Assembly: GCA_000004985.1 (NCBI GenBank)
Contig: GG738902.1
Length of the DNA: 64,000 nt
Strand: one strand, 5' to 3'
Source of the DNA: Naegleria gruberi
Taxonomy: Eukaryota
The notes under the pieces are model-generated. The model was not told the origin of the DNA. It ran no database searches and was given only the letters and a program-made list of their open reading frames with translations. The position numbers were made by a program, and so were the translations under genes. Of the stretch, positions 5,078 through 58,780 are shown one piece after another; the first letter of the stretch is position 1, and each line of letters opens with the position of its first letter.

Positions 5078-6553
5078 ATGAAAATTATTGAACAAGAAGA
5101 TATGTTAGAAGAAGAACTTGTTGTAATCCATTTGGATACTTCCATTTTCAGTCCACTCCTCAAATCAACAACAGACAACCAATCCAAATTATTAAAGCAC
5201 TGGTGTATGGAGGCAGATCTATTCAAATATTCCATCATTACACCTCTGGAATATTGTATTGAACAACCAAACCTTAATGGACAGTATTGCAAAATTAGTA
5301 AAGCTCCCTATGTATACTCTAAGAAACTACCATTGGAAGAGGAGGGATCGAAATGGATATGGGGTATGGATTCGATATTTGTACCAGATTATGTTGGTTC
5401 AAAACATGGCTCCTTATTGAGTGTTAAACAATCAACAAATAACGATGAAATAATTTGTGAAAAAGAAACTGAAAGATCAGATGCAACTATTCCAGTTGTT
5501 GTAGAGATGAGAAACAATAGAGAGTTTATGATGGAGAGTGTACAGAAAAATGGTTTATTACTTTATTATGCTCATCCTGATTTACTTTTTGATCAAGAAT
5601 TATTATTGGAAGCCATAAGAAATAATGTATCTGCTTTCCAATATGTTCCATATAATCTCAGAAGAGATGAACAATTCTTAAAAAGAGCTATTGAAAAATG
5701 TGGAGATGTGTTTTTATACCTTACTGGAGAGTGGAGAAAGAGAAATGATTTATACGAAATATCTTTGAGAACATGTGAAAACAAGCTAAAACTATTCGAA
5801 AGATTGGATCCTTCAATTAGAATGAATTATGCACCCAGTATGGTATCAAACTATTGGAGAGCAATCTATTTCCTCAACCCTTCAGACTCTCGATACTCTC
5901 AACTAATCCAGATTATTCTCAATTCGAATCAAGTTTCTGACTCTGAATTAATCAATTCAAATTTAATAACCAACAGGAAAGATTTATGGAAATATCTCGA
6001 TATTTCTTATAGGGCACTTATCTTGGCTAAAAGAGAGTGCATTGATAATGAAGCAATCATTAAGGCATTGAGAAGTAATATGATCATTTCCAACTATCTA
6101 TCGTATTACCAATGGAATGCAATCAAGGAAAATCATTCTCTTATAATGGAAATAATTCAAAATCCAATAGAATTAACAATTGAAGCTGCAACATTTATTA
6201 TTAAAAATTCTAATCGGGATAATGTCAGAGCACTCGTAAAAAGATATCCTTTTCTAGCAGAAAAGGTTACTGAGGTGAAAATGATGTTTGATCCTTATAT
6301 TCTTAGATATTTGCCGTCAAACAAACAATATGAAACTATTCGAAAGTGTGCCAAACTAATAATGGATGAAAAAGAGTATTTCGAAACAGTAGGATATTAT
6401 TTCCAAGGAAGCAGTGCCCTCGCCTGGATTTTAAGAGAAAGATTTACCATATCACATCCTGGCTTGGTCATTCCTTACCATAGATTTGGAAAAAAACTCG
6501 ACTGTCAACCAATTTGTTGGGATTTTGAGTTGTGGTATGAGAGTATCAACTAA
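5078..6553 (+). CDS. DUF4116-repeat protein
   Basis: ATG after an A-run. It carries repeated approx. 35-aa units of the form YAxxxLRxDxEFxLxAIxxNxxAFQYVP, typical of DUF4116 repeats. A paralogous repeat block sits in the gene at 56540..58231. Confidence 0.55.
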   Translation: MKIIEQEDMLEEELVVIHLDTSIFSPLLKSTTDNQSKLLKHWCMEADLFKYSIITPLEYCIEQPNLNGQYCKISKAPYVYSKKLPLEEEGSKWIWGMDSIFVPDYVGSKHGSLLSVKQSTNNDEIICEKETERSDATIPVVVEMRNNREFMMESVQKNGLLLYYAHPDLLFDQELLLEAIRNNVSAFQYVPYNLRRDEQFLKRAIEKCGDVFLYLTGEWRKRNDLYEISLRTCENKLKLFERLDPSIRMNYAPSMVSNYWRAIYFLNPSDSRYSQLIQIILNSNQVSDSELINSNLITNRKDLWKYLDISYRALILAKRECIDNEAIIKALRSNMIISNYLSYYQWNAIKENHSLIMEIIQNPIELTIEAATFIIKNSNRDNVRALVKRYPFLAEKVTEVKMMFDPYILRYLPSNKQYETIRKCAKLIMDEKEYFETVGYYFQGSSALAWILRERFTISHPGLVIPYHRFGKKLDCQPICWDFELWYESIN

Positions 6554-11856: not shown

Positions 11857-13140
11857 ATGCTTCAAACCCTCAACCAACAACAACAACACAGAAGGGCCGA
11901 AAGCAGCCCAAAATCTACAACTACTTTTGCATCATCAAATAATTCAATTATTGATTCTGATGCAGTCTCCAACAAGGTAAATGAATGGATTGGTTCCTTC
12001 TCAACTTGGACTTCTTCCGTTCAAAAATCCTTGGAGAATACTTTCAAGCAAGATGAAACAACCGCCACCACAACAACAACCCTTCCAACCACCAACAAGT
12101 CAAAGAAGGCACCACCATCATCATCCGTTGTTACCTCTACCACCACCGCCAGTAACAATGACTTTGTCAATGTTGACTTGTCATCATCCAGCGCTGTGGT
12201 GATGAATAATAACACGTTAAAAAAATCCCAACCAACCACTCAAAGCCTTCAACCAGCTTCTACCACTGCTTCCTCACCAACACAAAACAAAATGATGGAA
12301 AAACGATCACTGATAAGAAATCAAGACTTTTCCAGTGGAGAGGAAGATGAAGAATCACTTATTGGATCATTGAAGAAGGGGTCATCATTTTTGAAGGCTT
12401 CCACTGCCGGATCTTGGTTTGATTCAACTTTCTCTAACATCAAGACACAACTCTTCTCCGAAAATAACAAACCAACTGAAGAAGATGACGGACCATTGGC
12501 CAAGTCATTCTCTTCAAAGACCTCCTCGACTAAATCTCCTTCTCCTGTATCATCAACACAAAATAATTTATTGGACTCACTCTCTTCTACCTTTTCATCC
12601 CTCAAAACTCAAACAAATGACAAGTGGTCATCATTGACATCTCAATTCTTTGAAACTCAACCACCTATTGATGAAAATGATAATTCTTTTATTGGTAGAC
12701 TTTCAAAGGACGTTGATGGTATGGTAACTTTATCTGCCAAACAAAGAATGTATGGATTCTTTATGGCATTAGGATTTGGATTGTTGTGTATTCTGATTGC
12801 ACTTGGATTTTTACCATCCATCTTATTTGCTTCTGGTGCTTTTGCATTCTTCTACACATTTGGTAATTTGTTATGCCTTACATCCACTTTATTCCTTGTT
12901 GGACCAGCTGCACAACTCAAGAATATGTCAAAACCTGAAAGAGCTATTCCATCAGCACTTTTTGTTGGATCAATGATATTGACATTGTTGTGTGTTTTCT
13001 TTATGCCACTTGCCATTTTTATTATCATTTTGGTTATTGTTCAAACAGTTAGTTTGGCTTGGTATGTCGTTTCATACATACCATTTGCTCAATCAATTCT
13101 AGGAATGGTCTTCTCTTCATTCATGAAACTCTTCAATTAA
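11857..13140 (+). CDS. Got1/SFT2-like vesicle transport protein with a long Ser/Thr-rich N-terminal extension
   Basis: The C-terminal about 150 aa hold four hydrophobic helices with the family-typical R-x-x-GF...LCL-S-FL-GP-Q...M-x-x-x-R pattern. ATG at 11857. Confidence 0.6.
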   Translation: MLQTLNQQQQHRRAESSPKSTTTFASSNNSIIDSDAVSNKVNEWIGSFSTWTSSVQKSLENTFKQDETTATTTTTLPTTNKSKKAPPSSSVVTSTTTASNNDFVNVDLSSSSAVVMNNNTLKKSQPTTQSLQPASTTASSPTQNKMMEKRSLIRNQDFSSGEEDEESLIGSLKKGSSFLKASTAGSWFDSTFSNIKTQLFSENNKPTEEDDGPLAKSFSSKTSSTKSPSPVSSTQNNLLDSLSSTFSSLKTQTNDKWSSLTSQFFETQPPIDENDNSFIGRLSKDVDGMVTLSAKQRMYGFFMALGFGLLCILIALGFLPSILFASGAFAFFYTFGNLLCLTSTLFLVGPAAQLKNMSKPERAIPSALFVGSMILTLLCVFFMPLAIFIIILVIVQTVSLAWYVVSYIPFAQSILGMVFSSFMKLFN

Positions 13141-13358: not shown

Positions 13359-13997
13359 TTAATCCTTTCTCTTCCATACACAATTCATTGTAACATTGGC
13401 AGCTTTGAACATTTGGAATACAGGACAAGATCTCTCAACTCTTTCTTTTAAGGTGTCAATTCTTTCGTTCGATTCATTAGTTTCAACTTCAAATACCATA
13501 TCGACTGATTTAAAGTGAGCAGGAACACCAGCCACACCTCTCAATCCTCTGACATCTAAAACACCCGACATTTTGGTGCAGGAAATTGATTTGATTTGCA
13601 TCTTCATGCCTCTAGCAGCATATCGAGCAGTTATTATTTCACAACCAGACAATGATGCCAACGACAATTCCAATGGAGTAGGACCTTGATTTGTTCCTCC
13701 TAAAGTAATTGGTTCATCCATATTGATTGCAACACTTGGACAAGTACCTGCTGTAGAAACAACTAGGGAACCTTCTTCGGAAATTGATGTAATATTAAAA
13801 GTCTTTAAATATTTGCTAACATCTTCCTCTGCAGCTGCTGGTTTCTTTTCCTCCAAACAACGATTCATCACCGATGAAAAATTATTGACAAGAGCAGCAC
13901 TACCAGTTGATTTGATCATTCCGCTATTATTAAACCTCTTCAACAAGAGTGAAGGAAGACTGCTGCTGGTTCTATTAAGCAAAGTTCTTTTGATCAT
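13359..13997 (-). CDS. OsmC/Ohr-family peroxiredoxin-like protein with an N-terminal presequence
   Basis: GPTPLELSLASLSGCE matches the OsmC signature around the peroxidatic Cys, and a second Cys lies in ...RSCPVF. The N-terminus is Arg/Ser-rich with no acidic residues, so targeting-peptide-like. Confidence 0.7.
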   Translation of the reverse strand: MIKRTLLNRTSSSLPSLLLKRFNNSGMIKSTGSAALVNNFSSVMNRCLEEKKPAAAEEDVSKYLKTFNITSISEEGSLVVSTAGTCPSVAINMDEPITLGGTNQGPTPLELSLASLSGCEIITARYAARGMKMQIKSISCTKMSGVLDVRGLRGVAGVPAHFKSVDMVFEVETNESNERIDTLKERVERSCPVFQMFKAANVTMNCVWKRKD

Positions 13998-14203: not shown

Positions 14204-15049
14204 TTAACCATAGTATGAACGATCCTTAATGAATGTACATATTGTGATTGGTTCTTTTCCTTCTGATTCATAAGTGACTGATAATATTTCAATATTTTCT
14301 TCTTGATAGGTAGGTCCATAACGATCTCTGCCAGCTTTCTTTTTTCTTGCAATGCTTGAATGATTGACAAGTAGCTTTTCAGAGGAATCATTTGCAGAAC
14401 ACCACCAATCATTTAGAAGTGTTGAGAAGAATTGTCTGATATTCTTTTCGAAACTGTCAACTCCAGATGCTCTTTCTCTAGCTTGTCTCTGTTCGAAATA
14501 GGATTCATCTTGAGATCCAACAATTGTTGATGAGAATGCACCATCTGCAGAACCACTCTTACCACCTGAACTGTAAGAAATCTGAGTTGCAACAAACACA
14601 GCTCCACTTTCCTCAAATAATGGATCAATCAACTTGGATTTTTCACTCGTATTTCTTGGAATTGAAATTACTCTATTTGTGATAGAGCCAATCCATGGAT
14701 ATTCCTTTGGTTTTGCTAATGTTTCATCTTCATCACCAAAAAGATCTTCACATTCTCCACAATCATCTTCCTCTTCTTCTTCTGGAGCTTGATCTTTCGT
14801 AAGGAATGAATATCTTTCGGCTTCCTTGTCCACAGTTTGTCTACTCGTAAAGAAGCCTTGTCTAGTACTTGTATTCTCAGTTCGGGAATTTATTCTACCA
14901 ACTTGGGCTCTACTTGTTCCCTTAGCATTTCTTTCTCCTCCACCCAAATCATACTTTCTAGGACAAGCAAGAACTTCTACATAATTTTCTTGCCAATATT
15001 CGGACCACCACTGAGCACTTCTTAATTCCATCATCGGAACTTCAGACAT
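14204..15049 (-). CDS. Hypothetical protein (281 aa) with an acidic Cys-containing central stretch
   Basis: ATG at 15049. Clean ORF. No recognised domain. Confidence 0.4.
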   Translation of the reverse strand: MSEVPMMELRSAQWWSEYWQENYVEVLACPRKYDLGGGERNAKGTSRAQVGRINSRTENTSTRQGFFTSRQTVDKEAERYSFLTKDQAPEEEEEDDCGECEDLFGDEDETLAKPKEYPWIGSITNRVISIPRNTSEKSKLIDPLFEESGAVFVATQISYSSGGKSGSADGAFSSTIVGSQDESYFEQRQARERASGVDSFEKNIRQFFSTLLNDWWCSANDSSEKLLVNHSSIARKKKAGRDRYGPTYQEENIEILSVTYESEGKEPITICTFIKDRSYYG

Positions 15050-15331: not shown

Positions 15332-16024
15332 TTAACAACCAAATAATTGTGGATTGAAATTTTGAGGATTGGCAGTGAATGGACCTTGGCTGCCATCAAT
15401 CTTCAATTGAACCATATCATCCATTCCATATAAAAGTCTTGCAAATTCATCTCTGGTATCTGTTACAATTCTGTAAGAGTTAGATTCGCCATTATATTGA
15501 CCTTGCCACAATTGATACTTTAATTTACCATCAAACTCTTCTCTGACATATGCAGAATCCTTAGACAAGCTCCAATTTGGCATATCGTCCATACCATAAC
15601 CAAATTGCCAAAAGTCTCTTGTTTTTGTACAATTCAAAGAAATGACAGTTCCACCGCCAACTTGAATGGTTTTGTATTTGATGAGATAGGTATCAACCTT
15701 GACTCTGAGTGAAGACGGACCATAAATATTGATAATGGTTTGTTCTGGGAGATAGGTTGTGTTTACATTGAACAAGTCAATTCTCTCAGCTCTATTATAA
15801 TAATCATAATAATAAGTAGCATTGGTAAACTTCAAGTTAGTGTCTGCATAGGATACAGTCACATTGCTGGCGATGAAAGCAAGTGGGAGTCTTGGATTTT
15901 CTTTCATTGGCATGGTTGGCAAGATTTTGAATCTTTCTGGAATTCTTGAACAGGAAACAAATCCAAGGAAATAGAGCAAGCTGACCAAAACGAAAGCTGA
16001 ACCAACTGCAGTCGATACTTTCAT
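15332..16024 (-). CDS. Secreted protein of unknown function with an internal YGMDDM repeat
   Basis: N-terminal signal-peptide-like hydrophobic segment (AVGSAFVLVSLLYFLGFVSC). There are two copies of the W/YGMDDM motif. 230 aa. Confidence 0.45.
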   Translation of the reverse strand: MKVSTAVGSAFVLVSLLYFLGFVSCSRIPERFKILPTMPMKENPRLPLAFIASNVTVSYADTNLKFTNATYYYDYYNRAERIDLFNVNTTYLPEQTIINIYGPSSLRVKVDTYLIKYKTIQVGGGTVISLNCTKTRDFWQFGYGMDDMPNWSLSKDSAYVREEFDGKLKYQLWQGQYNGESNSYRIVTDTRDEFARLLYGMDDMVQLKIDGSQGPFTANPQNFNPQLFGC

Positions 16025-17062
16025 TTTTTGTTTTTTTTTTGATTATGATTAATTGGTGTTGATCTAAATTTTCATATTTATGACCAATTCAACTCGAATT
16101 CATTTGGATGTCGATTAGAGGTTTGTCTCCGGATACTATTTTCTGTACCAAATAAGGTGATAATGGAAACAAGTTAGAACCAAAAAGCTGGGGCAAATTC
16201 TTTGGTCCCGCAATTACCCGCCGATAGTCGCCTCTCAAAATTACACGCATATTCAAAATGGCCTGAAATCGTCACTGGGAAAACATGGGCCAAGTTGACT
16301 TCCAACGATATATATAATATCACACCACATAAAATTAACAGTACGTAACGGTCATATATAAACTACTATTCATGAATTGTAATGTTTTCAATTGTTGTAT
16401 TTCACGAGTAAATAATCAATTTGTCATTTTGAAAAATTACAATTTTAATTACAACAGCTTAAAAACCACATTTTCTAAATTTCATATGGTAATCTCTCTG
16501 AATTATATTGTATACATACCAGAAAGTAATGTATCAATTATTTGCTATTTAAAACCTTGTATTTTTAAATATTTATCTATTAAACTTTAACTACTATATT
16601 TGGAATATAATTTTCAATATTCTCAAGAAATAATTAACCAATTTTTTTCATGGTTAATGTTAAATTATATAAAGATGATAATCAAGCAAAATAATATAAA
16701 TTGTTAATGATTTAGTGTTTCAGGATTCAAATCTTATGTTTTTGTCAATTTATCTTCCTTATTTTTCAGTATTTTAAAAAAACCCGAATCAGAAAGATTG
16801 TAATTGTAATTTATTTTTGTTTCGTATATTGTTGGAGATGTAAATCATTAAGAATAAAAACTAGATACGAAAAAACATTGAAATTCTTGCTGGACCAGTG
16901 GTAAATTTTTAACTTAGTAGAAATTCAAAAAATGCCACCAAAGCCAAAGCAAGTTCATGCTACGATCAAAAATAAGCTTGAATAGCTAGCTAATAGAACA
17001 AGAATGATGATCTCTCTAGTATTTGTCCTGGTATTGATTTAAAAAGAATTGGTGATGTAAAA

Positions 17063-17658
17063 TTGATTAATTTAATTGGAAAGAAAGTTTTTATTCGTGA
17101 TGGTCGTTTATTCACCCATTCCGAACCAATTACAATATCATCTAGACAATGTACATGCCCTTCTTGTGGAAAATTGTATAGAAATTCATTACGAAAGTAC
17201 CATGACAGAATGCCATCATTGAATACATCATGGAATAGCTTATTACCTTCTCTTATTGATGGAATTATCACGCAAATATTTGTAAAGAATTTATTGAGAA
17301 AATTATTTAAAAATAATTTTTCAAATTTATTGGACTCAATTTCAACACCTAAACTCAAAAGAAACTCAAAAGAAAAAGAAATGAATTAATTTCTGAAACA
17401 GAGAATTCACCACCAGTCAAAAAAGTCAAACAAAAGACTATTGGAACGAAATCAGATTCAACAGATAGGAAATCAGTAAAAACGACACGAGACCCAAAAC
17501 GGATTCCTATTAAATGTGGGTGTAGATATGATGAAAATTCATTGGATAAATGTGGCTGTCTTACCAATAAGTGTAGCTGTACTAAGAATAATAGGAGTTG
17601 TTCAGAACTTTGTGTAAATTGTAAAGGAAGATGCAGTGTAATTCGTATTAAACTTTGA
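17063..17658 (+). pseudogene. Candidate Cys-rich (CXC/tesmin-like) gene disrupted by a frameshift, or an unresolved gene structure
   Basis: ORF 17063..17389 (frame 0) and a second open frame 17353..17658 (frame +2) overlap without any GT...AG between them. The second frame encodes IKCGCRYDENSLDKCGCLTNKCSCTKNNRSCSELCVNCKGRC but has no start codon. The junction lies in A-homopolymer runs. Confidence 0.25.
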
Positions 17659-17691
17659 GTAGACTGACTTGTAATTTTTTTAAAAAATTTG

Positions 17692-17773
17692 GGTGGCCTG
17701 AAGGAGACTTCTAAAAAAATCGCTGGAGTCGGCCACCCGTGCAAAATTACTGCATGCAGTACAAAACCCATGG
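17692..17773. other. GC-rich palindrome cluster (GGGTGGCC...GGCCACCC hairpin, TGCATGCA, CCCATGGG) in the AT-rich intergenic region
   Basis: An 8-bp perfect GC-rich stem with a 33-nt loop at 17692..17740 is followed by two 8-bp palindromes. It is a strong local GC outlier, about 120 nt upstream of the 17889 ATG. Confidence 0.4.
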
Positions 17774-17888
17774 GATGAGCAAAATTTGTCCTTGAATTAA
17801 AACGTGAATCTGGTTGGAAACAAATCTGATTGTTTACAAAATTAATGTTAAATTCCGTAAACAAGTAATTGTAAACTCATCTTAAAAA

Positions 17889-18503
17889 ATGGGACAACAA
17901 CAAACAACAGAACCTCCGACGCTTCATGTGGTGATCACTGGATTGGATGCTCACGGAAAATCAACTTTTATTTCAAAAATAATTCGTGGAGGTGAGACTA
18001 CACTTCTCAGATATTGTCAGACAATAACTTCTAATATTTTATATCATCGCAAGATGGAAAATATTCATCTAGCATCAAATAATAAGAATATTGATGCAAT
18101 ATTTAATTTTACAATATTTGATTGTAATATTATGAGTCATGTATCAAAGAGAGTGTTATATCAATTTTGGAATAGTCTTGTTGTTGATTGCAAGTTGATT
18201 GTTTTTCTGTTTGATTCGGGTGATAAGGACAGAATTGAGGAGGTTAGGGAACAATTTCATAAAATTATGGAAATGGTATTGGAATTAAATTGTAAATTAT
18301 TGATTATTTCTTCAAAGGTGGATTTACCTTATCATTTACAAACAGATGAAATTGTGAATAACATTTTGGAAATTAAAAATTGGAATTTACCAGAGGATAG
18401 ATGGGCAATTCATACATTTGATCATAATATGAGATCTTCGAAAGTGGTGAATGCATTCAGTGATTTTGTAGATGGTGTAATTAAATCAATTCCACAAAAC
18501 TGA
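17889..18503 (+). CDS. Divergent Arf/Arl-family small GTPase-like protein (probable pseudo-GTPase)
   Basis: An MG N-terminus could be a myristoylation site. The P-loop GLDAHGKST is intact. The Arf G3 motif WDVGGQ is replaced by FDCNIM, and NKxD is replaced by SKVD. The overall Arf scaffold is conserved (FDSGDKDRIEEVREQF matches VVDSNDRERVNEAREEL). Confidence 0.6.
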   Translation: MGQQQTTEPPTLHVVITGLDAHGKSTFISKIIRGGETTLLRYCQTITSNILYHRKMENIHLASNNKNIDAIFNFTIFDCNIMSHVSKRVLYQFWNSLVVDCKLIVFLFDSGDKDRIEEVREQFHKIMEMVLELNCKLLIISSKVDLPYHLQTDEIVNNILEIKNWNLPEDRWAIHTFDHNMRSSKVVNAFSDFVDGVIKSIPQN

Positions 18504-18534
18504 ATAACAGAAATTTGAGGTTTGAGAAATAGAT

Positions 18535-19827
18535 TTATTGATCAGGTAATCTGAAATTCATTCTATCTACATAAAGCCATAACTTTCTAGGATCAATGTG
18601 TGGAGCTAGTGGACATTCGTATGGAACATTCCAAGCATTTGGAGTTGTACTACACCAAGTATTTGTTAATAGCTTGACAGTCGCAGTGTAGAGAGCTGGA
18701 CTCATTCTCAATTGTTGTTGCATTGGTAAATAGTAGAATTCAACCATGGCTCCAAAATTTCCTCCAATTTTTGCGAATTGATTTTGTGAAACTGATTTAC
18801 CATTGACACTAATTGGACAGCCTGCAAGAGTGGAATAATGACATAATTCTACAAGAAGTTGATCACAATCAGCATCTGTTACAATATTTTCCACAACTAC
18901 ATATCCAAATCTATGGAAGAAATCAATATGTCTTTGAGTGAGGAAGTGATCATTCTCTTGTAAAATCTGATCAATCACACTAACTGGATGTTCATCATCA
19001 ACAGTCAACAAATTCTGATAAGGTTGCTCATTGTAAAGACATTCACCGAGTGGGGTTAATGGTACAAGATCCTTTTCTGGTTTTAAAAATTGTTGTTCCA
19101 TTCTGAATTTAGTACCAAAATCATCTGGATGTTCAAAACGTTTTCTCTTTTCTTGCAATTGCTTGATTGTTTGATAATTGACCTTGTGAGCACAACTGTA
19201 AGCATGATAAAATACAGATCTAGGTCTATTCATATCATTGGCATCTGAATTTCTATGAGCTGTTCTATTATCAAAGAATATATAATCACCCTTCTTAATT
19301 GGAATATATTCCAATCTATCATGCTCCTTTACAATATTCCTCACATATTCCACCATTTCATCTGCACTATTCAATTGATCTAAAGTATTGTTAGCAGGTG
19401 GTGGATTCCAATTTTGTGGAATTCTTTGAACTTTCCTCACCAATTCATATAATGGTTTATCCTCCTCCTTATTAAATCTCAAATGATATGAACTAACCCA
19501 AGGAGATTTAGCTCTCATTTCACTTGCTGATCTCAATTTTAGATCCACTGCTGGAAAATACTTTTCACACACAGAGGCAAATCCAGGAATCACCTCCAAT
19601 CCACCCTCCTTCTTATGTCTATTGACACATCCATCAGTTAAACAAACCATCGATTGGAAAGGTCTAAATCTATCCAATGGACCATATGTAAAATCTGTCT
19701 TTAATTTACCCCACAAATTATATGGCCAACAATCCAAGTGAAGACCTGTTCCTGTTTGAGTCATTGTGATTTCATCTGATTCCGAGGAAGATGATGCTGT
19801 TGTGTTTTTCTTGTTTTTCGGTGGCAT
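18535..19827 (-). CDS. Phytanoyl-CoA dioxygenase (PhyH)-family Fe(II)/2OG oxygenase-like protein with its domain halves in permuted order
   Basis: ATG at 19827. Residues about 20-210 resemble the PhyH region from the HxD motif to the C-terminus (LHLD...NGxL-VIPG...KGDYIFFDNRTAHRNSDANDMNRPR). Residues about 290-430 resemble the PhyH N-terminal region (FLTQRHIDFFHRFGYVVVENIVTDADCDQL ... PHID). Confidence 0.55.
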   Translation of the reverse strand: MPPKNKKNTTASSSSESDEITMTQTGTGLHLDCWPYNLWGKLKTDFTYGPLDRFRPFQSMVCLTDGCVNRHKKEGGLEVIPGFASVCEKYFPAVDLKLRSASEMRAKSPWVSSYHLRFNKEEDKPLYELVRKVQRIPQNWNPPPANNTLDQLNSADEMVEYVRNIVKEHDRLEYIPIKKGDYIFFDNRTAHRNSDANDMNRPRSVFYHAYSCAHKVNYQTIKQLQEKRKRFEHPDDFGTKFRMEQQFLKPEKDLVPLTPLGECLYNEQPYQNLLTVDDEHPVSVIDQILQENDHFLTQRHIDFFHRFGYVVVENIVTDADCDQLLVELCHYSTLAGCPISVNGKSVSQNQFAKIGGNFGAMVEFYYLPMQQQLRMSPALYTATVKLLTNTWCSTTPNAWNVPYECPLAPHIDPRKLWLYVDRMNFRLPDQ

Positions 19828-20193: not shown

Positions 20194-21579
20194 ATGACTC
20201 AACACTTGTATGGAGATAAACCATTTTCTTCTTCCGATGAGTTGCAATCGATCAGCAGTATTAGAATTAATGACATTAGAATTGAGGAAATTAATAAATC
20301 AATGGAGGGAGAAACGATTCGCTTGATTGCAAGAGCTTCAAGAGTTGTAAAAAAGGGAAAATTATGTTTTGTTCGGTTGAGAAGAAACTCACATTCGATA
20401 CAGGCATGTTTCCTTGCAAAAAATGATCAAGAAAGGGAAATGGTTAAATATATTGGAGGAATTCCTCATGAATCAATAGTGGAAGTTGTTGGAATAATTG
20501 TTATGAGAAAGAGTAAGAGTAATGAAACTGTTTCAGAGTTGGAATTGGAAATGAAAGAGATTTATTGTTTATCAAGAGCTCAAAAATTGGATTATGAATT
20601 GGATGAATTGGAAGATATGAGGCAGAGTAGGTCCTTACATACTAAGAGATATGTCAGCTTGCGACATTCCTTTATGCATCATATTTTCAAATTGCAATCT
20701 TTAATTGGAAGAAAGTTTTGTGAATATATGTATTCGAAAGATTTTACAGAAATTCACACACCTCACATTGTTAAAAATCAAAGTGATAATAATATATCCA
20801 GTTTTACTTTTGATTATTTTGGTAATAGTGTTGAATTGACCACCTCTTCACATCTACATCAACAATTAGCTATTCATGGTGGATTGGATAGAGTATTTGA
20901 GATTTCTTGTGCATTTGAAAAGCACCATGGCTGTACGCATGTACACTTGAACGAAAAAACAACATTGAATTTTGGAATGACTATTGCCTCTCACTACCAT
21001 GAAGTAATATCTGTGGTGAAAGAGTTATTGAACTATATTATTGATGAAATATCAGAATATGAAGGATTGGAAGTAATTGCAAAGCATAACTCAAGGGGTC
21101 TAGAAAAATTAAAGAAAACAGAAATTTTGGAGCTCACATTCAAAGAAGCTGATGCCCTATTGATAGCCAATTGTTCAGAAAATGAATTTGGTGGATTTAT
21201 GGCACTTAGAGAAGTAGCAAGTTACTTTAAAGATTATACTGACATTTTGATTATTCAAAATAGTGCACATGAAGAAGTTGGTTGTTTTGAAATGCCAAGT
21301 TCAACTGGAAAGGGCTTTAACAATTTCATCATTCTTATTAGAGGAATTGTTGTTGGACGTGGATGCCAATATATTCACGATGAGGAATTGTTGAAGCATC
21401 AGGTTCGCTGTCATGCCCCTGATCTAGTATCAGCTTTGAAATATGGTGCTCAACCTTGTGGTGGATGTTCAATTGATTTAGAGTTATTCTTAATGCAATT
21501 CCTTCAATTAAGCAATGTTCGATTCACCTCTCTATTTCCAAGAGCTCCCACTATCTATGAAAATGAGCAACTACTTTAA
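20194..21579 (+). CDS. Class II aspartyl/asparaginyl-tRNA synthetase-like protein, probably catalytically inactive
   Basis: It has an OB-fold-like N-terminal region and a class II core collinear with eukaryotic AspRS (FTEIHTP..., THVHLNE matches THRHMTEF). Motif 2 fRxE is FEKH and motif 3 GxGxGxER is CGGCSIDLEL, so both invariant arginines are lost. Confidence 0.65.
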   Translation: MTQHLYGDKPFSSSDELQSISSIRINDIRIEEINKSMEGETIRLIARASRVVKKGKLCFVRLRRNSHSIQACFLAKNDQEREMVKYIGGIPHESIVEVVGIIVMRKSKSNETVSELELEMKEIYCLSRAQKLDYELDELEDMRQSRSLHTKRYVSLRHSFMHHIFKLQSLIGRKFCEYMYSKDFTEIHTPHIVKNQSDNNISSFTFDYFGNSVELTTSSHLHQQLAIHGGLDRVFEISCAFEKHHGCTHVHLNEKTTLNFGMTIASHYHEVISVVKELLNYIIDEISEYEGLEVIAKHNSRGLEKLKKTEILELTFKEADALLIANCSENEFGGFMALREVASYFKDYTDILIIQNSAHEEVGCFEMPSSTGKGFNNFIILIRGIVVGRGCQYIHDEELLKHQVRCHAPDLVSALKYGAQPCGGCSIDLELFLMQFLQLSNVRFTSLFPRAPTIYENEQLL

Positions 21580-21640: not shown

Positions 21641-24364
21641 TTACATGACTGAACACTTCTCATCATTTGACTTTTCCTTATTGTTCCTCTTCTTTTTCTT
21701 TCCTTCACTTTGATCATCAGTGTCAGATTCACTATCTTCATCATCTTTATCAGACAATGATCGAGCCAATGGTAAAATGTAATCATCAGCAGCAGAGACA
21801 CCCTTTCTCTTTTCATTGTAAGTCCATTGTAATTCACCATCTTCAATTCTGTAAGCAGAACAAATAGCAACACCCTTATCAGGCTTAACAAGAGGTGTGA
21901 AGAAAGATCTCACTACACACAATTGAGGATTACTAATAGTCTTGTCGTCTGTCTTTTTGGTTGCGAAACGTTTGCAGAATGAAATGTCAAAGCCCTTTTC
22001 AGCCTCTGACAAATCTCCACCATTTCCATGGTAACATTCATGAACCTTTTGCCATTTGACAGCACCATCCTTCAAATTAATGGCTATCAGTTGAACATCA
22101 ACACGTTGTTGAATAGTGAGGAATCTACGTTGATCAATAACTTGTCTAGAAAAGACCATTATTCTTGATTCTTCATTAGTATTCAAAAGAGGAGAAGAAA
22201 TGGAATGTTGAATATGTGAAAATTCAAACATGAATTGAGCATCCTTCTTCCATGAGAATGGTTGACTCCACTTGAGTTGGAAAGTTCCTTCTTGAACTGA
22301 TTTTTGAGATTGAACAAATTCATAGAATGAAATTGTTTTTTCGTCCTTTTGAATGGAAATGAAACCGTCCAATCTTGGAATACCTGGCTTGGTTTCGTTT
22401 GTTTGCTTTTCAACAATGATAATTCTATCATGTGAAACACCAGTCAATAATTGATCAATGTGGAGAATTCTACCAATATCTGGTTGAATAATTGCCCATT
22501 CATTCTTTTCACCAACAAGGAAGTGCCAATCAGTGATATCCTTGAACAATAAAGTCTTGGTCTTATTTTTGGTAGTGCTGTAGGAATTGGTTTGTGGAAT
22601 TTCACAAAGTTTCTTAATACTAATAATATGAGTTCTCTTTCCTTCTCTATTAACAATTCTCATTTCACCTTCAAATTCATTTACAATACAGAAAACTGGA
22701 GATTTCTTTGGTCTGAACATCATTTGTCTATCTCTTGATTGTCCAGAAGCAGAAACACTAACTGTTAAAGTGTTACCATCAAAAATATATAACTTTGGCT
22801 TTTCAATAAATCCATATGAAGTACTTCTGCTACTGCTACTATTACTTGTCTTGAAACTTTGTGTTCCAGAAGTAGTAGTGGTAATGTCACTACTTGTAAC
22901 AGGTGACAAGACAACATGTTGAGTATCGAGTGGATTTGTGAAAATGGTACTGATAGTGTGTGGAACTTGTGAATTAGTTGGAGTGGAATCATTTACACTT
23001 GGTGATAGACCAGGAATTGAAATGGTTCTTGTTCCTCTTGATTCACCAACTTGTTTAGTTTGTTCATCAGTCCAAATACTTGTCTGTTTGGAGAAATCAA
23101 TGCTCTTATCACGTACAATATTCTCACCAATTAAAACACAAATACCATCAAAGAAATCTTGTTTTCTATTATTTCCATTAACTTCAGTGAATGAAGAAAC
23201 GCAAGAAACACGTTCTCTCTTTTCATTAATCATGTGAAATTTAGTAATTGGATCATTAACAATCAAATTGACCTTTAAACCATTCTTCTTATTAAAACAA
23301 ATAACTTGTTGTGGAAGTTGAACAATGATACTATTCTCAGTTTGTGTGAAAGCATTAATAAATAAATAATTCACACGTCTACTTGATGGCAATTTCTCAT
23401 CAATTAGCTCACTCCACCTAACACACAAACCCAACAAATCAAAACAACCCAAAATGTTACCATACATGATATACACATAATGTCCATCATATAAATATAA
23501 ACAACTGTAATTTGTATATTGATAGGACAAATCAGGAGAGTCATTATAAGCTGTCAATGGATACAAATGTGTAACTTCATCTCCACACAATCCCTTAGGA
23601 ACTGGAGTTGCAGAAGTTCCAACCAAATTTGAATTATTTCCTCCTGTGGCACTACCAATAGAATTGCTAGAATTACCTCCTACATTTGGAGTAGTAGCAG
23701 TAGTATTAGTAGAAGAAGAAGTATTAGAAGAAGTATTCTTCAATGGAGTACTTGGTGAATTTGGTTGTTGAAGTTGCAATTGTTGTTGAGAAGACAAGGA
23801 TGATGAAGAATTGCTTGCTGGAAGAGAACCACCTTGTTGTAAAGCAAGTGCAGCAGTAGAGAGGACAATATTTGGTTGTTGAGATGAAGACAATTGTGAA
23901 GAGGATGAGGAAGCACTTCCACCACTTGTCTTACTGTCAGTAGTATTCAATGATTTTTGAATGACAGGTTCAGTATTTTGATATTGTGCAGGAATATGTG
24001 TATACAGAATAGTTACTCGTCTATTTTCTCTATTATAAGAATTTGATGTTGTTGTTGTATTAGAATTTGTATTTCCATAATGTCTAGAATAAATAGTTTC
24101 AAAAACAGACTTTCTAATAATTTCACGATCATTAAAATCAAATATACGTGCTCCTGTTGATGCGTCAAATAGAATATTATTGAATAAACAGCAACGATTT
24201 GGTGTGTGAAGAACTTGATATTGGAAACGCAAAGATTCCAAACAAAATGATGAAGAAACATGTAAAAGTGAATTGTTAATTTCATCATAGGTTAGGAATG
24301 GGAAAATATGTGGAAGGAGAAGTGAGAGTGCTTCTCCTTTATTGTTGGTGGTGGAAGAAGACAT
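21641..24364 (-). CDS. Hypothetical protein (907 aa) with Ser/Gln/Asn low-complexity tracts and an acidic/basic C-terminal tail
   Basis: ATG at 24364. Long clean ORF. No recognised catalytic motifs. Confidence 0.5.
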   Translation of the reverse strand: MSSSTTNNKGEALSLLLPHIFPFLTYDEINNSLLHVSSSFCLESLRFQYQVLHTPNRCCLFNNILFDASTGARIFDFNDREIIRKSVFETIYSRHYGNTNSNTTTTSNSYNRENRRVTILYTHIPAQYQNTEPVIQKSLNTTDSKTSGGSASSSSSQLSSSQQPNIVLSTAALALQQGGSLPASNSSSSLSSQQQLQLQQPNSPSTPLKNTSSNTSSSTNTTATTPNVGGNSSNSIGSATGGNNSNLVGTSATPVPKGLCGDEVTHLYPLTAYNDSPDLSYQYTNYSCLYLYDGHYVYIMYGNILGCFDLLGLCVRWSELIDEKLPSSRRVNYLFINAFTQTENSIIVQLPQQVICFNKKNGLKVNLIVNDPITKFHMINEKRERVSCVSSFTEVNGNNRKQDFFDGICVLIGENIVRDKSIDFSKQTSIWTDEQTKQVGESRGTRTISIPGLSPSVNDSTPTNSQVPHTISTIFTNPLDTQHVVLSPVTSSDITTTTSGTQSFKTSNSSSSRSTSYGFIEKPKLYIFDGNTLTVSVSASGQSRDRQMMFRPKKSPVFCIVNEFEGEMRIVNREGKRTHIISIKKLCEIPQTNSYSTTKNKTKTLLFKDITDWHFLVGEKNEWAIIQPDIGRILHIDQLLTGVSHDRIIIVEKQTNETKPGIPRLDGFISIQKDEKTISFYEFVQSQKSVQEGTFQLKWSQPFSWKKDAQFMFEFSHIQHSISSPLLNTNEESRIMVFSRQVIDQRRFLTIQQRVDVQLIAINLKDGAVKWQKVHECYHGNGGDLSEAEKGFDISFCKRFATKKTDDKTISNPQLCVVRSFFTPLVKPDKGVAICSAYRIEDGELQWTYNEKRKGVSAADDYILPLARSLSDKDDEDSESDTDDQSEGKKKKRNNKEKSNDEKCSVM

Positions 24365-28651: not shown

Positions 28652-29602
28652 ATGTCAACTGTTCTTGTTCTTGGAGCCAATGGTTATATTGGATTGGGTG
28701 TTTCACAAGCATTGCAAAGAAATGGATTCTCAGTTCATGGAGTCATTAGATCAGAAAAACATGAAAAGTTATTGTGGCAAAGTGAGATTACACCACTGAT
28801 CATTTCCAAAGCCGAAACTTTGTTTACTGAAGAAAAGTTTGGTAAAATTTTGGAAAAGACAAGTGTTATTATAGATTGTATTGGGTTGACTGAAGAAACT
28901 GACAAGTTTGTTCAATTGTTGAAAGACCATTCTGCTGAGAGATTGAAGAAGAAACTTGGAAGATTGTTATTCGTATTTACAAGTGGAATAATGACCTATG
29001 GAAATGCTTCAAGTGAAACATTTTTGGATGAGAATGTGAGACCAGAGCCAACTCATTCATGGACTGAGAAGAGAAAAAATTTCGAATTTGAATTGGTGAA
29101 TGGAGAGTTTAATTATTTGGATACTTGTGTGATTCGTCCTGGTTTCGTTTATGGAAAGAGTGGTGGTGGAATTTTCACTGATTATTTCAATCCAAAGATT
29201 ACTCAAGATGGTAAACTATCAATTGCTGGATCACCAAAGAAGAGATGGAGTTGGGTTCATGTTGATGACTTGGGAGAAGCTTATTCGAAAGTTGTACAAG
29301 TAGGAAGAAAGTTAGTTTCTGGTCAATTATTCAATATTGCAAATCCAAATGATTACCCAACCTATGATCGTGTTAGAATTGAGATTGCAAAGCAAACAGG
29401 ATGGAAACCAACCACTGAGAATGAAGCAGACTCACTTCTTATCGAGCCAGTCCCACAAGATAATGCAGGTTTAGTTATTTTTGAGAATACTGTCATGATT
29501 AATCCAAGAAAGGCAATTGAAGTGTTGGGTTGGGAACCTAAACACTTGAATTTCATTGAAAAGATTCATTTATACTATCAATCTTGGAAGAATTTGCAAT
29601 AA
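28652..29602 (+). CDS. NAD(P)-binding Rossmann-fold protein, extended-SDR epimerase/dehydratase or NmrA-like
   Basis: N-terminal VLVLGANGYIGLGV (GxxGxxG). 316 aa. ATG after an A-run. Confidence 0.6.
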   Translation: MSTVLVLGANGYIGLGVSQALQRNGFSVHGVIRSEKHEKLLWQSEITPLIISKAETLFTEEKFGKILEKTSVIIDCIGLTEETDKFVQLLKDHSAERLKKKLGRLLFVFTSGIMTYGNASSETFLDENVRPEPTHSWTEKRKNFEFELVNGEFNYLDTCVIRPGFVYGKSGGGIFTDYFNPKITQDGKLSIAGSPKKRWSWVHVDDLGEAYSKVVQVGRKLVSGQLFNIANPNDYPTYDRVRIEIAKQTGWKPTTENEADSLLIEPVPQDNAGLVIFENTVMINPRKAIEVLGWEPKHLNFIEKIHLYYQSWKNLQ

Positions 29603-29678: not shown

Positions 29679-30347
29679 CTAGTATGTAATTTTGTGAACT
29701 TCCAAATCTTCTACTAAAAAGTTAGTATTACCAAAGTATCGTGTATTCGAATTGGGTAATTTACATTCCTCTAGAATATAGCATTCAGTTTGGTGTGAAC
29801 CAGATGAAATTTGACAATTGGCATTAGGACACACCCAAAAGCAATATCCAAATGCAAACAAGTAAGGAGCATCAGACTCTTCATATCTGTAGAGTGCATG
29901 ATCTCTATAGACTGGTTGTAATCTGAACGCATAAAACTTGTCATTCTCAAATCTGAACGTGAATAACTCATCATCATTAACATTTCTATCTCCGTCAAGT
30001 CTCAAATTCTTAGTAGTATATCCTCCAAATAAATCTCCAGCTTTTGATTTTACAATAATCACAACTTTGAAATGATCATCACAATATTTATGAAAACTCT
30101 TTAAAGAAAATCCATCCCTGCTGGCTCTGTAGAGTAATTGTGGAGGTTTGAATGTATTCAATTCCTTCCCTCTAAATAATTGATGAAATTGATGGTAATT
30201 TAATAATTTACTATTGTTTTTGGAAATGGTTCGGTAAAAGTTTGTTAATTTTGCTGATCCAAAGTGATGATCCAATTTAATAATAATTGATTCTCCTTCG
30301 TATTCTTCCTTCAATTCATCCTCCATCACATGGTTGACTATACTCAT
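29679..30347 (-). CDS. TLDc-domain protein
   Basis: LLYRASRDGFSLKSFHKYCD...DLFGGYT...fFtFrf pattern typical of the TLDc (OXR1/NCOA7-type) domain. 222 aa. Confidence 0.55.
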   Translation of the reverse strand: MSIVNHVMEDELKEEYEGESIIIKLDHHFGSAKLTNFYRTISKNNSKLLNYHQFHQLFRGKELNTFKPPQLLYRASRDGFSLKSFHKYCDDHFKVVIIVKSKAGDLFGGYTTKNLRLDGDRNVNDDELFTFRFENDKFYAFRLQPVYRDHALYRYEESDAPYLFAFGYCFWVCPNANCQISSGSHQTECYILEECKLPNSNTRYFGNTNFLVEDLEVHKITY

Positions 30348-30949: not shown

Positions 30950-31210
30950 GGATTTGGAGTTAAATCCAGTTCGTAAGTTTGAGTTGGCCACTTGGTAAAA
31001 TAAAAGTGGATTCTTCTAAGAAATTCCCAGAAATGAAAGCTTTCAAAACTGGTCCTTTCAATAATTCCTTTCGAATAAATATTTTGCTAGTGGTTAAAAT
31101 TATGAAGGAATTGGAAGAAACACTTTACAATGAAAATAGCCAATCGAATGTTGGAACGATTTTGCACAGGTTTGAAGGGCAAAATCGTTCTATTTTTAAA
31201 AATAAAAAAA

Positions 31211-32512
31211 ATGCACCAGATTACATTCTCTTCGAGCGTAGAGGACACTGATTGTGGTGACTATGATTCATACTCTGACAACTCCAACAGATCACAAGAC
31301 TATGATTACTACGAAGATTATGAAAGTGATTCATGTGGAGAGATCTACGAAACTAATTTTAAAGATATTGAAGAAATTACTGTCAGTTCCATTTGTCCAA
31401 GATGTAGAAAATCTATTGGTCTTGTTGCTTATTTACAAGATTATTATGAAGAAGGTGAAAGAGAAATGGGTTATGATATGGCCTTTGAATATGATGTTGG
31501 GGGTGGTTGTTGTGATAGTTGTAATAGTGAGGTTGAGCCTGAGGATTCATCATTAACAATCTACTCTTATGTGAGTGGTGGTACATTGCTGGAGGATTGT
31601 GATTTTCCAGAAGTTTCTGTGAAATTAATAGAATATTACATTAGTGATGAAGATGATGAAGATTATGATGAGGATGAAGAAGATGAAGATGATGACACTA
31701 CATTCGATATAGCTCCAGCCATTTGTTTACCTTTTCAAGGAAAAGGAGATTGTGTTGTTGTTAGATACAAGAACTTAACTTTAGGAATTGATACTGGATA
31801 TTCAAAATACTTCACCAACATTCCAAAACAATTCAACTTCTCAAAGTCCAATCATTCTTATTTAATTGTTACACATGCCGATAGTGATCATTCTGCTGCA
31901 GTAGACAAGTTTATAGAAAAAGCCAAACGAACTCCCCACTTGCTGTTCACAGATGCTAGAAAACAAGATTCTTTCAACATAGCAACAGTTCAAGATATTT
32001 CAAAAACAATTGCTTATCATTACAATGACCTAACAGTTACAAGCTATTTGCCACCTGGTAACAATACAAACGATCGCTCCATAATCAACATCATAAACTG
32101 GAGGGGAAAGAAATTGGTTTTTGCTGGAGACCAACAATATTCAACAATACTGAAAGTATTGGCTGCGAAAGGGATTGAAAGTGTATATTTATTCCATATC
32201 CCTCATCATGGTTCTAAGCATAATTGGGACTGTGACGTCTTAATACCAGCCAAAAATTATCTTGTAACTGGCTATCCAACAACCAAATACCCTGAGTTTA
32301 ATAGTGACTCTCATTTCCAAGTTGTGAGAGGTGTTTGTGAGATGTTGTTGCTACATAAGAATTTTGGAGAAGTTATCATTTATTTTACTAACTGTCGTTT
32401 AACTGTTGAGGATTGGTGTCGTATTCAAAATAACGAACGTTACGCTACGGTGAAAAGGTTTGTTCGTATTGTTACAACCAACAACCATCAACAAACTTTC
32501 AGTATTTTGTAA
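31211..32512 (+). CDS. ComEC/Rec2-type metallo-beta-lactamase-fold protein with an acidic Cys-rich N-terminal region
   Basis: LIVTHADSDHSAAVDKF matches the ComEC-type SHxDxDH motif. AGDQQ...LFHIPHHGSKHNW matches the ComEC-type C-terminal HHGS motif. N-terminal CPRCRKS...CCDSCNSE is zinc-ribbon-like. The ATG at 31211 follows an A8 run; the track start at 31130 is also an ATG in the same frame. Confidence 0.6.
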   Translation: MHQITFSSSVEDTDCGDYDSYSDNSNRSQDYDYYEDYESDSCGEIYETNFKDIEEITVSSICPRCRKSIGLVAYLQDYYEEGEREMGYDMAFEYDVGGGCCDSCNSEVEPEDSSLTIYSYVSGGTLLEDCDFPEVSVKLIEYYISDEDDEDYDEDEEDEDDDTTFDIAPAICLPFQGKGDCVVVRYKNLTLGIDTGYSKYFTNIPKQFNFSKSNHSYLIVTHADSDHSAAVDKFIEKAKRTPHLLFTDARKQDSFNIATVQDISKTIAYHYNDLTVTSYLPPGNNTNDRSIINIINWRGKKLVFAGDQQYSTILKVLAAKGIESVYLFHIPHHGSKHNWDCDVLIPAKNYLVTGYPTTKYPEFNSDSHFQVVRGVCEMLLLHKNFGEVIIYFTNCRLTVEDWCRIQNNERYATVKRFVRIVTTNNHQQTFSIL

Positions 32513-34583: not shown

Positions 34584-35408
34584 ATGGAAAAAATAATTGA
34601 AATTAAGGGTGCTGTCATCAGCTCACCAATTTTTGATACTCAAGGAGGTTTATGTTTCTCTTCAATAAATACTGGAGATGTTTATTTAGTGCCGCAAGGA
34701 GGAGAATCGGATCAGACAATTCATTTGACAAATACAAAAGGCTCACCAACGGGAGTTGCTTTTAACTATGTTGATGGAAGTATTCTTGTTGCTGATTCAG
34801 CAAATCAGGCAATTTTAAAAGTAAATCCCGAGAATAATAATCAAGTTCAAATAATAAGAGGTGATTTTAGAGGAAAGCCATTTATTGGACCAAATAATGT
34901 AATTGTAGATTCTAAAGGAATGATGTATTTTTCAGATAGTGGACCATTAGGTGAAACATCTATTGAGAATCCAAAGGGATCGGTTTATTGTCTTAGTACG
35001 GATGGAAAGATTTTGAAATCACTTGCTTATGAATGTTTGGCATATCCTAGTGGCCTTGCATTTTCACCTCATTCAGAAGATGTAATTTATGTGGCAGAGA
35101 CAATGAAAAATCGTATCTTGAGATTTACCCATATTAATGGAGCATTCTATTGCTCTGTTTTTCAACAATTGAGTGGAGGATTTGGACCAACTGGAATATG
35201 TGTTGATGATGAAGGAAATATCTATGTAGCAATGTACGAATTCAAACAAGTTTCTACTGAAGGAAGAATTCTTGTACTGAGTGAGGCTGGAGTTTTAAAG
35301 AAGGAAATTATCCTTGAGAATATTAGTGAAATTACTGGAATAACCTACAAGAGAGGATTTTTATACATTACAGAAGGCAACAGTGTTTACAAGTATGAAT
35401 TGGATTAA
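34584..35408 (+). CDS. SMP-30/gluconolactonase/LRE-like six-bladed beta-propeller protein
   Basis: GPNNVIVDSKGMMYFSDSG and repeated G-x-x-f-D/N blade motifs. 274 aa. Confidence 0.6.
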   Translation: MEKIIEIKGAVISSPIFDTQGGLCFSSINTGDVYLVPQGGESDQTIHLTNTKGSPTGVAFNYVDGSILVADSANQAILKVNPENNNQVQIIRGDFRGKPFIGPNNVIVDSKGMMYFSDSGPLGETSIENPKGSVYCLSTDGKILKSLAYECLAYPSGLAFSPHSEDVIYVAETMKNRILRFTHINGAFYCSVFQQLSGGFGPTGICVDDEGNIYVAMYEFKQVSTEGRILVLSEAGVLKKEIILENISEITGITYKRGFLYITEGNSVYKYELD

Positions 35409-58231: not shown

Positions 58232-58780
58232 TTTTTCTCTAAACCTCTAAAAAGGCTGATCACGTTCTAGTCATAATCATTCCGAAAAACTGATGGTTGA
58301 TCAGATGATTAAGATATGGAAGGATTAATTTTTGTTAAATTTTTTTTAAGAAATTCAAATTGAAAGACATATTATAAATTTGAGGCAACAAATTGTTTTA
58401 AATTAATTGAGAATAGGATTTATTTGTAAAATTGTAGGCTAATCCTTTGATTTCACCAAATCTTAGAATTTCACAACACTTCCTTTACTGTTTTGGTTGT
58501 TATAGAATTTGTATTTCGAAAGCATTAAATTGAAACAAACTGAAAGCTCAAAACATTCCACTCATCTATGTACTCACCGTTTCAATTTAATGCAAACACA
58601 AACAATTGACTGCTTTTATGTTGTTTTATTAAATTGTTTGAATAGGAATCTTTCAGCTTGCACTAATAACATGAAATCATCAAGTTATTTTGTTGGTTAT
58701 TTAAAAGAATCTCACGGAGGACAATATACCACTCCGAATCATCATCATCAACACAAAAAAATAACATTCAACACCTTGTG

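Follow-up and report, generated by a model that had tools for sequence, protein, structure and literature searches.

Roughly 80% of a 64,000-nucleotide stretch of the Naegleria gruberi genome (assembly GCA_000004985.1, contig GG738902.1; hereafter the window) is coding, carried as simple, intron-free open reading frames (ORFs) on both strands at 33% GC. Among these lies an uninterrupted ATG-to-TGA frame of 204 codons plus stop, at positions 17,889 to 18,503, that encodes a divergent member of the ARF family of small GTPases. Its 204-residue product is 100% identical to NgrArlX1 of Vargova et al. (2021, Genome Biol Evol 13:evab157; PMC8358228; Supplementary table 1, dataset 1). The protein is therefore already known, having been catalogued in 2021, and so is its kind, that of atypical GTPases and pseudo-GTPases within the ARF family. 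To that record we add two relatives that have a conserved replacement switch II in common with it, a likely origin among Arf1b-type paralogs, a corrected inventory of its nucleotide-binding motifs and the absence of the amphipathic helix with which an Arf normally begins.

In the supplementary entries of PMC8358228, NgrArlX1 is entered as a gene modelled de novo from whole-genome shotgun contig ACER01000556.1 with its orthogroup given as ‘unannotated’, a status it kept after ScrollSaw, hidden Markov model and BLAST analyses; the name ArlX is used there for ARF-family members without consistent affinity to any orthogroup. In the main text as searched, neither the state of its G motifs nor its relatives nor its likely origin was found to be discussed. 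From the reference annotation the gene appears to be missing altogether. The exact 204-residue sequence is absent from a collection of 15 billion proteins and, unlike its neighbours, it returned no match to itself in two homology searches. UniProt entries D2VVN0, D2VVN1 and D2VVN2 are numbered consecutively, as are the GenBank entries for the plus strand, EFC39069 (Got1) and EFC39070 (aminoacyl-tRNA synthetase, aaRS), and this numbering implies that the interval from 16024 to 18535 has no slot for a reference model. Proteomic and transcriptomic studies built upon the standard annotation are consequently blind to NgrArlX1.

The frame itself is a real and intact gene, well beyond what chance would leave open: at the local base composition, a stop-free run of this length has a probability of 1.4e-7. 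When codon usage was scored against 25 long ORFs of the window (real genes 0.32 +/- 0.09 bits/codon, minimum 0.199), NgrArlX1 reached +0.216 bits/codon in frame, against -0.69 and -0.92 in the other two frames and -0.63 on the antisense strand. The last 115 codons are also spanned by an ENA contig (L009) from an N. gruberi-like strain, 99.4% identical, in which two nucleotide differences leave the protein unchanged; this fits constraint on the gene, in a sample too small for a test.

Membership of the ARF family, proposed in an earlier, sequence-only reading of the locus, is borne out by both sequence and predicted structure. The product scores 52.9 bits with the Pfam Arf profile (PF00025; cutoff 22.3, E=3.9e-14), and phmmer searches of PDB chains recovered 168 sequences at E<=1, the best 60 of which are all Arf, Arl or Sar1, led by Arf1 (E=1.8e-8) with Arf1 and Arf6 structures at ~2e-8. 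An AlphaFold2 (AF2) model built from an 86-sequence Arf alignment, which replaced an unusable single-sequence model (pLDDT 53.6), predicts a complete G-domain with a pLDDT of 82.9 and a pTM of 0.81; confidence is moderate in the interswitch hairpin and switch II and drops below 50 in switch I (residues 39-49). Compared with the PDB by Foldseek, the best 50 matches to this model are all Arf or Arl proteins, the first being GDP-bound Arf1 (8sdw; E=6.7e-11, target-normalised TM 0.75), so that the modelled fold is that of an Arf-type G-domain.

Where NgrArlX1 departs from its family is in the motifs that bind and sense nucleotide (Table 1), which were compared across the protein, its two relatives, and ARF-family sequences curated in the PMC8358228 dataset (29 from N. 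gruberi, 6 from Neovahlkampfia). The P-loop is intact, as the earlier reading had it. HMMER and MAFFT both place FTIFDCNIM opposite FTVWDVGGQ, and SKVD opposite NK[QH]D, and the replacement of WDVGGQ by FDCNIM, with loss of both the glycine and the glutamine of G3, stands. A different alignment register that might restore DxxG or NKxD was sought and is ruled out, because there is no glycine anywhere between residues 36 and 110, the sole DxxG (D20-G23) sits inside the P-loop, and [NT]KxD is absent throughout the protein. The G4 motif had been described as lacking along with G3; the change from NKQD to SKVD is real, but the lysine and the guanine-specifying aspartate are kept, and the loss was overstated. 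Two further departures had been missed, namely the degenerate switch I threonine (G2) and the loss of the G5 alanine. Loss of the catalytic glutamine is in itself commonplace in Naegleria, occurring also in Arf1g, h, i, j, k and l, in ArlX2-4 and in Arl6b, Arl13 and Arl16, and Naegleria Sar1 carries the usual histidine at this position (DxGGH). Among the Naegleria sequences read, absence of the DxxG glycine is confined to NgrArlX1 and its two relatives, whose switch II is also lengthened by an insertion of 5 residues. In Neovahlkampfia, two ArlX proteins show DxxxG.

Table 1. NgrArlX1, its sequence features and neighbouring genes with exact database counterparts (positions are those of the window)
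Feature	Position	Strand	Basis
NgrArlX1, single-exon coding sequence, divergent ARF-family protein	17889..18503	+	ORF; Pfam Arf; 100% identity to published NgrArlX1; codon bias; AF2/Foldseek
N-terminus MGQQQTTEPPT (residues 1-11), Gly2 candidate N-myristoylation site	17889..17921	+	MGQ in 3/3 family members; PS00008; published ‘yes’
G1/P-loop GLDAHGKST (residues 18-26), intact GxxxxGK[ST]	17940..17966	+	G18, G23 and K24 >=90% conserved in 86-sequence alignment
Switch I region ...CQTITSN... (residues 39-49)	18003..18035	+	Mg-coordinating Thr not kept (Ser/Asn/Asn in three members); pLDDT <50
Lengthened interswitch beta2-beta3 hairpin (residues 50-73), ~14 residues longer than Arf1	18036..18107	+	alignments; AF2 strands 52-55, 59-63 and 66-76, moderate confidence
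Beta3 and remodelled switch II FTIFDCNIMSHVSKRVL (residues 74-90), 5-residue insertion	18108..18158	+	alignment; family motif; no Gly in residues 36-110
FDCNIM in place of WDVGGQ (residues 77-82)	18117-18134	+	alignment
G4 variant SKVD (residues 142-145), Lys/Asp kept, Asn->Ser	18312..18323	+	K143 and D145 invariant in 86-sequence alignment of diverse Arf relatives
G5-equivalent WAIHTFDHNM (residues 172-181), canonical C/S-A-x Ala lost	18402..18431	+	motif table; no [SC]A anywhere in protein
D2VVM7, N. gruberi protein, 427-aa Got1/Sft2-family with long N-terminal extension	11857-13140	+	exact look-up
D2VVM9, N. gruberi protein	14204-15049		exact look-up
D2VVN0, N. gruberi protein flanking NgrArlX1	15332-16024		exact look-up
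D2VVN1, N. gruberi protein flanking NgrArlX1	18535-19827		exact look-up
D2VVN2, class II aaRS	20194-21579	+	100% identical to ‘aspartyl-tRNA synthetase [Naegleria gruberi]’ on 305,921-bp contig
D2VVN4, N. gruberi protein	28652-29602		exact look-up

This unusual arrangement is not peculiar to one protein. An exhaustive HMMER search of 1.84 billion cluster representatives gave 194 matches at E<=1e-3 and only two at E<=1e-10, P0001 (E=2.7e-21) and P0002 (E=2.8e-11), both of which have the derived switch II and [ST]KxD. P0001, found on the ENA metagenome contigs L001 and L002, reads ...NFTIYDCNVLSHISRG...IVTSKNDLP, and P0002, on the JGI metagenome contig L003, reads ...TFRIFCSNFLSHLSRG...IVATKTDLP. 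Pairwise identity within the trio is 28-38% overall, and common to all three are the MGQ start, GLDxxGK, a switch II of the form F-x-I-[FY]-[DC]-[CS]-N-x-[LM]-S-H-x-S-[KR], in which N80, S83, H84 and S86 are invariant, and [ST]KxD-LP. The G4 states are SKVD, SKND and TKTD, and a first-position threonine also occurs in Rho-family GTPases that are active, Rac1 (TKLD) for one. At G1, NgrArlX1 and L001 have GK-ST and L003 has GKL; the G5 alanine is lost from two of the three (NgrArlX1 and L001). In a three-member alignment divided into 192 sliding windows of 13 residues, the segment spanning beta3 and switch II (residues 74-86, FTIFDCNIMSHVS) ranks first for conservation, followed by G4 at 6, the P-loop (from residue 16) at 10, G5 at 86 and switch I at 162. 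Such a pattern in switch II is suggestive of the opposite of what random decay would produce, and the ranks of G1 and G4 argue that the nucleotide pocket is still under selection; as judged from these alignments, NgrArlX1 belongs to a small conserved family and would not be a one-off product of decay. A profile of the three members found no further relatives in 5.8 billion proteins, IMG/VR contigs or JGI metagenome contigs, and a single-sequence word-indexed search, scans of viral contigs, a peptide-pattern scan of metagenomes and a degenerate DNA pattern for switch II returned nothing beyond P0001 and P0002.

The closest relative is broken. P0001 represents the C-terminal part of its gene, and the N-terminal half (MGQHQTIEKKLLKISISGLDGHGKSTYL...) lies upstream in the -1 frame, the two being split by a +1 frameshift near nucleotide 258 that is the same in two ENA assemblies (L001 and L002) from different samples. 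An intron is ruled out, as no GT...AG of fitting phase or length lies between the halves, which leaves either a real +1 frameshift or an indel made in assembly and common to both. On L001 (98-662 and 675-745) and on L002 the split relative is followed by a tRNA-Asp(GTC) in the reverse orientation. Identity between the two contigs stops where this tRNA ends, pointing to a tRNA gene that is repeated or to a branch point in the assembly.

A frameshifted relative is one of several observations that would be expected if NgrArlX1 were a relic without function, a duplicate of Arf1 that is decaying or not expressed and whose frame is still open by chance. The gene has no reference model, its canonical motifs are disrupted, the published entries cite no transcript support for it (PMC8358228), and redundancy is high in an organism listed with 36 ARF-family genes (PMC8358228, supplementary file 6). 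We nevertheless consider such a relic quite unlikely, since the 204-codon frame is intact with its codon bias in frame, both differences in the second strain are silent, the MGQ start is conserved, and a derived switch II that is common to relatives of such low overall identity is also their best-conserved segment. The hallmarks of a pseudogene are thus not seen, with the derived motifs kept in the relatives, and expression of NgrArlX1 is presumed.

In a cycling Arf, the amide of the DxxG glycine contacts the gamma-phosphate and drives the change in switch II, whilst Gln71 (in Arf1) and the arginine finger of an ArfGAP position the attacking water. Mg2+ is held by the switch I threonine and the P-loop Ser/Thr, guanine is chosen by the aspartate of NKxD, and an interswitch toggle links GTP binding to release of a myristoylated amphipathic helix. 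Because the DxxG glycine and the catalytic glutamine are both absent from NgrArlX1, neither canonical nor ArfGAP-stimulated hydrolysis, nor gamma-phosphate sensing by switch II, is to be expected, and the earlier description of the protein as hydrolysis-dead holds as a prediction. As to the accompanying suggestion of possibly impaired nucleotide binding, [ST]KxD is kept throughout the trio and K143 and D145 are invariant, which argues for retained binding of guanine nucleotide. The scaffold role put forward in the same reading stands as conjecture for NgrArlX1.

We therefore favour, as on balance probable, a reading in which NgrArlX1 is a hydrolysis-incompetent, non-switching and probably nucleotide-binding offshoot of Arf1 (Arf1b-like), restricted to its lineage and resembling the class ii pseudoGTPases. 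Guanine nucleotide would still be bound through the P-loop and the lysine and aspartate of G4, would not be hydrolysed by the Arf/ArfGAP mechanism, and its gamma-phosphate would be uncoupled from movement of switch II, the interswitch and the N-terminal helix, such that the protein would not cycle. The conserved, remodelled switch II may then offer a constitutive surface for binding partners, and a myristoylated Gly2 might confer weak membrane affinity independent of nucleotide. Likeness to class ii draws together the observed loss of the glutamine and the DxxG glycine and the nucleotide binding that conservation of G1 and G4 would imply. Several points weigh against this reading. The degenerate switch I and G5 could already abolish binding of Mg2+ and nucleotide; the frameshift in L001 and L002, together with GKL and a missing G3 aspartate in the other relative, could mean that the nucleotide site is decaying; and a family of three makes the conservation ranks weak, suggestive and not statistical. 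Myristate unaided by a helix, a polybasic patch or a cysteine gives only weak binding to membranes.

One rival is a class i pseudoGTPase, in which the G-domain would be a purely structural or interaction module without nucleotide, like microsporidian ArlEM or the pseudoGTPase domains of AAGAB and p190RhoGAP. Three of the five G motifs are degenerate (the switch I threonine, the glycine and glutamine of G3, the alanine of G5), one relative is without both the P-loop Ser/Thr and the G3 aspartate, switch I shows little conservation and is of low confidence in the model, and ArlEM sets a class i precedent within the Arf family. Yet the P-loop glycine and lysine and the G4 lysine and aspartate rank with the best-conserved positions in the family, which is unexpected of an empty pocket, and we regard a nucleotide-free NgrArlX1 as unlikely.

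The invariant residues of switch II (N80, S83, H84 and S86) permit quite another interpretation when set beside a conserved P-loop and G4, namely an active GTPase in which a non-canonical catalytic residue, such as His84 of the S-H motif, is supplied by the lengthened switch II. Analogues for such a histidine exist in His79 of Sar1 and the catalytic histidine of EF-Tu, and the Sar1 paralogs naturally have histidine at the glutamine position (DxGGH). This is the least probable of the accounts considered, as the gamma-phosphate anchor of switch II, the DxxG glycine, is absent, His84 lies six residues past the aspartate and not four, and switch I, the source of a Mg ligand, is unconserved. Broader, and very unlikely, is the notion that N-x-[LM]-S-H-x-S-[KR] constitutes a new functional module of a small heterolobosean family, be it through an alternative catalytic histidine (a GAP-independent, non-canonical GTPase) or through a constitutive effector interface, with anchoring by myristate uncoupled from the state of the nucleotide.

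At the N-terminus of NgrArlX1, the potential myristoyl-glycine pointed out in the sequence-only reading is plausible: PROSITE pattern PS00008 fits GQQQTT, and the published supplementary entries give myristoylation of the N-terminal glycine as ‘yes’, without a transmembrane segment or a palmitoylatable cysteine, and list Gly2 as present with two predictors positive, the NMT predictor being ‘reliable’ at 0.807 (PMC8358228, Supplementary table 4). An MG start is, however, the ancestral Arf state and little informative. More telling is that the amphipathic helix of Arf proper is absent from NgrArlX1, whose residues 2-11 (GQQQTTEPPT) are polar and include two prolines, with residues 1-10 modelled as coil. 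Since there is neither helix nor polybasic patch nor nearby cysteine, membrane affinity would be expected to be weak even if Gly2 is myristoylated.

As to ancestry, phmmer searches of the curated heterolobosean set rank paralogs of the Arf1 group first for all three family members, the best matches being NgrArf1b1, 1i, 1h and 1a. The least-derived member, L003, scores 87.5 bits against NgrArf1b1 (E=1.6e-27) versus 71.6 bits against NgrArf1a, and has an F-R-[IV]-F strand and an IKQDW segment in common with NgrArf1b1. With the heterolobosean Arf1 paralogs (especially NgrArf1b1/b3, but also 1a, 1h and 1i) the trio has in common the P-loop GLDAxGK[ST], the MGQ start, an F-[TR]-[IV]-F beta3 strand, a DSNDR-type beta4 region and, in L003, IKQDW. 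Those paralogs, in contrast to NgrArlX1, keep DIGGQ (or at least DxGG), NKQD, PTIGFN, C/S-A-x and a hydrophobic, amphipathic N-terminal helix. The phmmer ranking thus offers a lead, that the trio may have branched off from Arf1b-type paralogs and evolved fast; other heteroloboseans are the probable source of the metagenomic relatives.

The neighbouring genes mark the whole window as nuclear DNA from a heterolobosean amoeboflagellate, N. gruberi. Immediately 5' of NgrArlX1 lies the longest gene-free stretch of the window (16025-17888; 1.86 kb, 29% GC), which has no convincing gene: a 169-residue ORF with a TTG start (17355-17864, minus strand) shows no bias in its codons (0.003 bits/codon) and matches no Pfam family. 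Scans for tRNAs and Rfam families found neither anywhere in the window, and hence none in this gap, which could hide an intron-rich gene, a non-coding gene or a large promoter region. Upstream TTG-initiated ORFs of the window and the ORFs beside the relatives on their own contigs also have no Pfam matches and so carry no taxonomic or syntenic information. Membrane-traffic and stress genes are found in the same window as NgrArlX1, in the form of the Got1/Sft2 gene of Table 1, an ATG27/mannose-6-phosphate-receptor-like gene (58778-59593, plus strand) and a TLDc gene (29679-30347, minus strand), probably by coincidence.

For an OsmC-like gene (13359-13997, minus strand), a 907-residue protein without a Pfam match (21641-24364, minus strand) and a protein kinase (59647-60567, plus strand), the simple ORF translations are absent as exact sequences from the protein collection in which their neighbours are present; presumably the reference N. 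gruberi models for these three differ by introns or alternative starts. The aspartyl-tRNA synthetase D2VVN2 is unusually divergent, with only ~30% identity to its nearest relatives among 5.8 billion proteins, and is possibly a second, specialised paralog. A 1016-residue protein (41218-44268, plus strand) matches Pfam Penicillin amidase at E=8e-154, a bacterial-type enzyme on a eukaryotic scaffold, and the OsmC gene, an SMP-30/gluconolactonase (34584-35408) and a metallo-beta-lactamase-fold gene (31130-32512) have a similarly bacterial flavour; all four are possible lateral transfers. DUF4116 repeats occur in two proteins (5078-6553, plus strand; 56540-58231, minus strand), one of which also has a fused protein-kinase domain. 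Taken together, this content (eIF4G-like MIF4G, class II aaRS, Got1/Sft2, DUF4116, DUF2828, penicillin amidase) mimics the signature of a giant virus. A viral origin, which the gene content and the ~80% intron-free density would suggest, is ruled out by the 100% identity of the aspartyl-tRNA synthetase and by the neighbours D2VVN0-N2, and the Mimivirus-type promoter motif AAAATTGA was sought in the window and not found.

The broad biological weight of NgrArlX1 is small, as ARF-family members without catalytic residues are common (many of the 36 N. gruberi paralogs are without the glutamine) and lineage-specific Arf pseudoGTPases have been described. Its interest lies in its not being an orphan: with two relatives it makes up a tiny family in which the replacement for switch II is conserved, a natural Arf fold devoid of the DxxG glycine. 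An Arf1b-type derivation, if true, may illustrate the speed with which duplicated Arfs leave the GTPase cycle.

Arf-family members that have lost the catalytic glutamine, or are pseudoGTPases, are already documented, including ArlEM (PMC13393502). Human ARL10, ARL13A/B, ARL15 and ARL16 are like NgrArlX1 in having no catalytic glutamine in switch II and in not following a simple GTP/GDP cycle. Unlike NgrArlX1, ARL13A (IYDLNGD) and ARL16 (RELGGC) keep a glycine in the switch II turn, and each of the human atypical ARLs was placed in a named paralog group of the ARF family by the study supplying the sequences, whereas NgrArlX1 was left unplaced; comparison of NgrArlX1 with these human proteins found no specific sequence relationship. 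ArlEM, conserved in Eumicrosporea, is likewise specific to its lineage, highly divergent within the Arf family and altered in its G motifs, and has been read as a putative pseudoGTPase; most of its motifs are typically mutated and class i has been proposed for it (PMC13393502), whereas NgrArlX1 keeps G1 and a variant of G4, and the two lineages are unrelated. In function, an analogy may be drawn with the class ii pseudoGTPases Rnd1-3 and RhoH, which are nucleotide-bound, deficient in hydrolysis and regulated outside the GTPase cycle, as we propose for NgrArlX1. They belong to another branch of the Ras superfamily and keep DxxG, with the catalytic residues alone substituted, so the analogy is one of function and not of membership.

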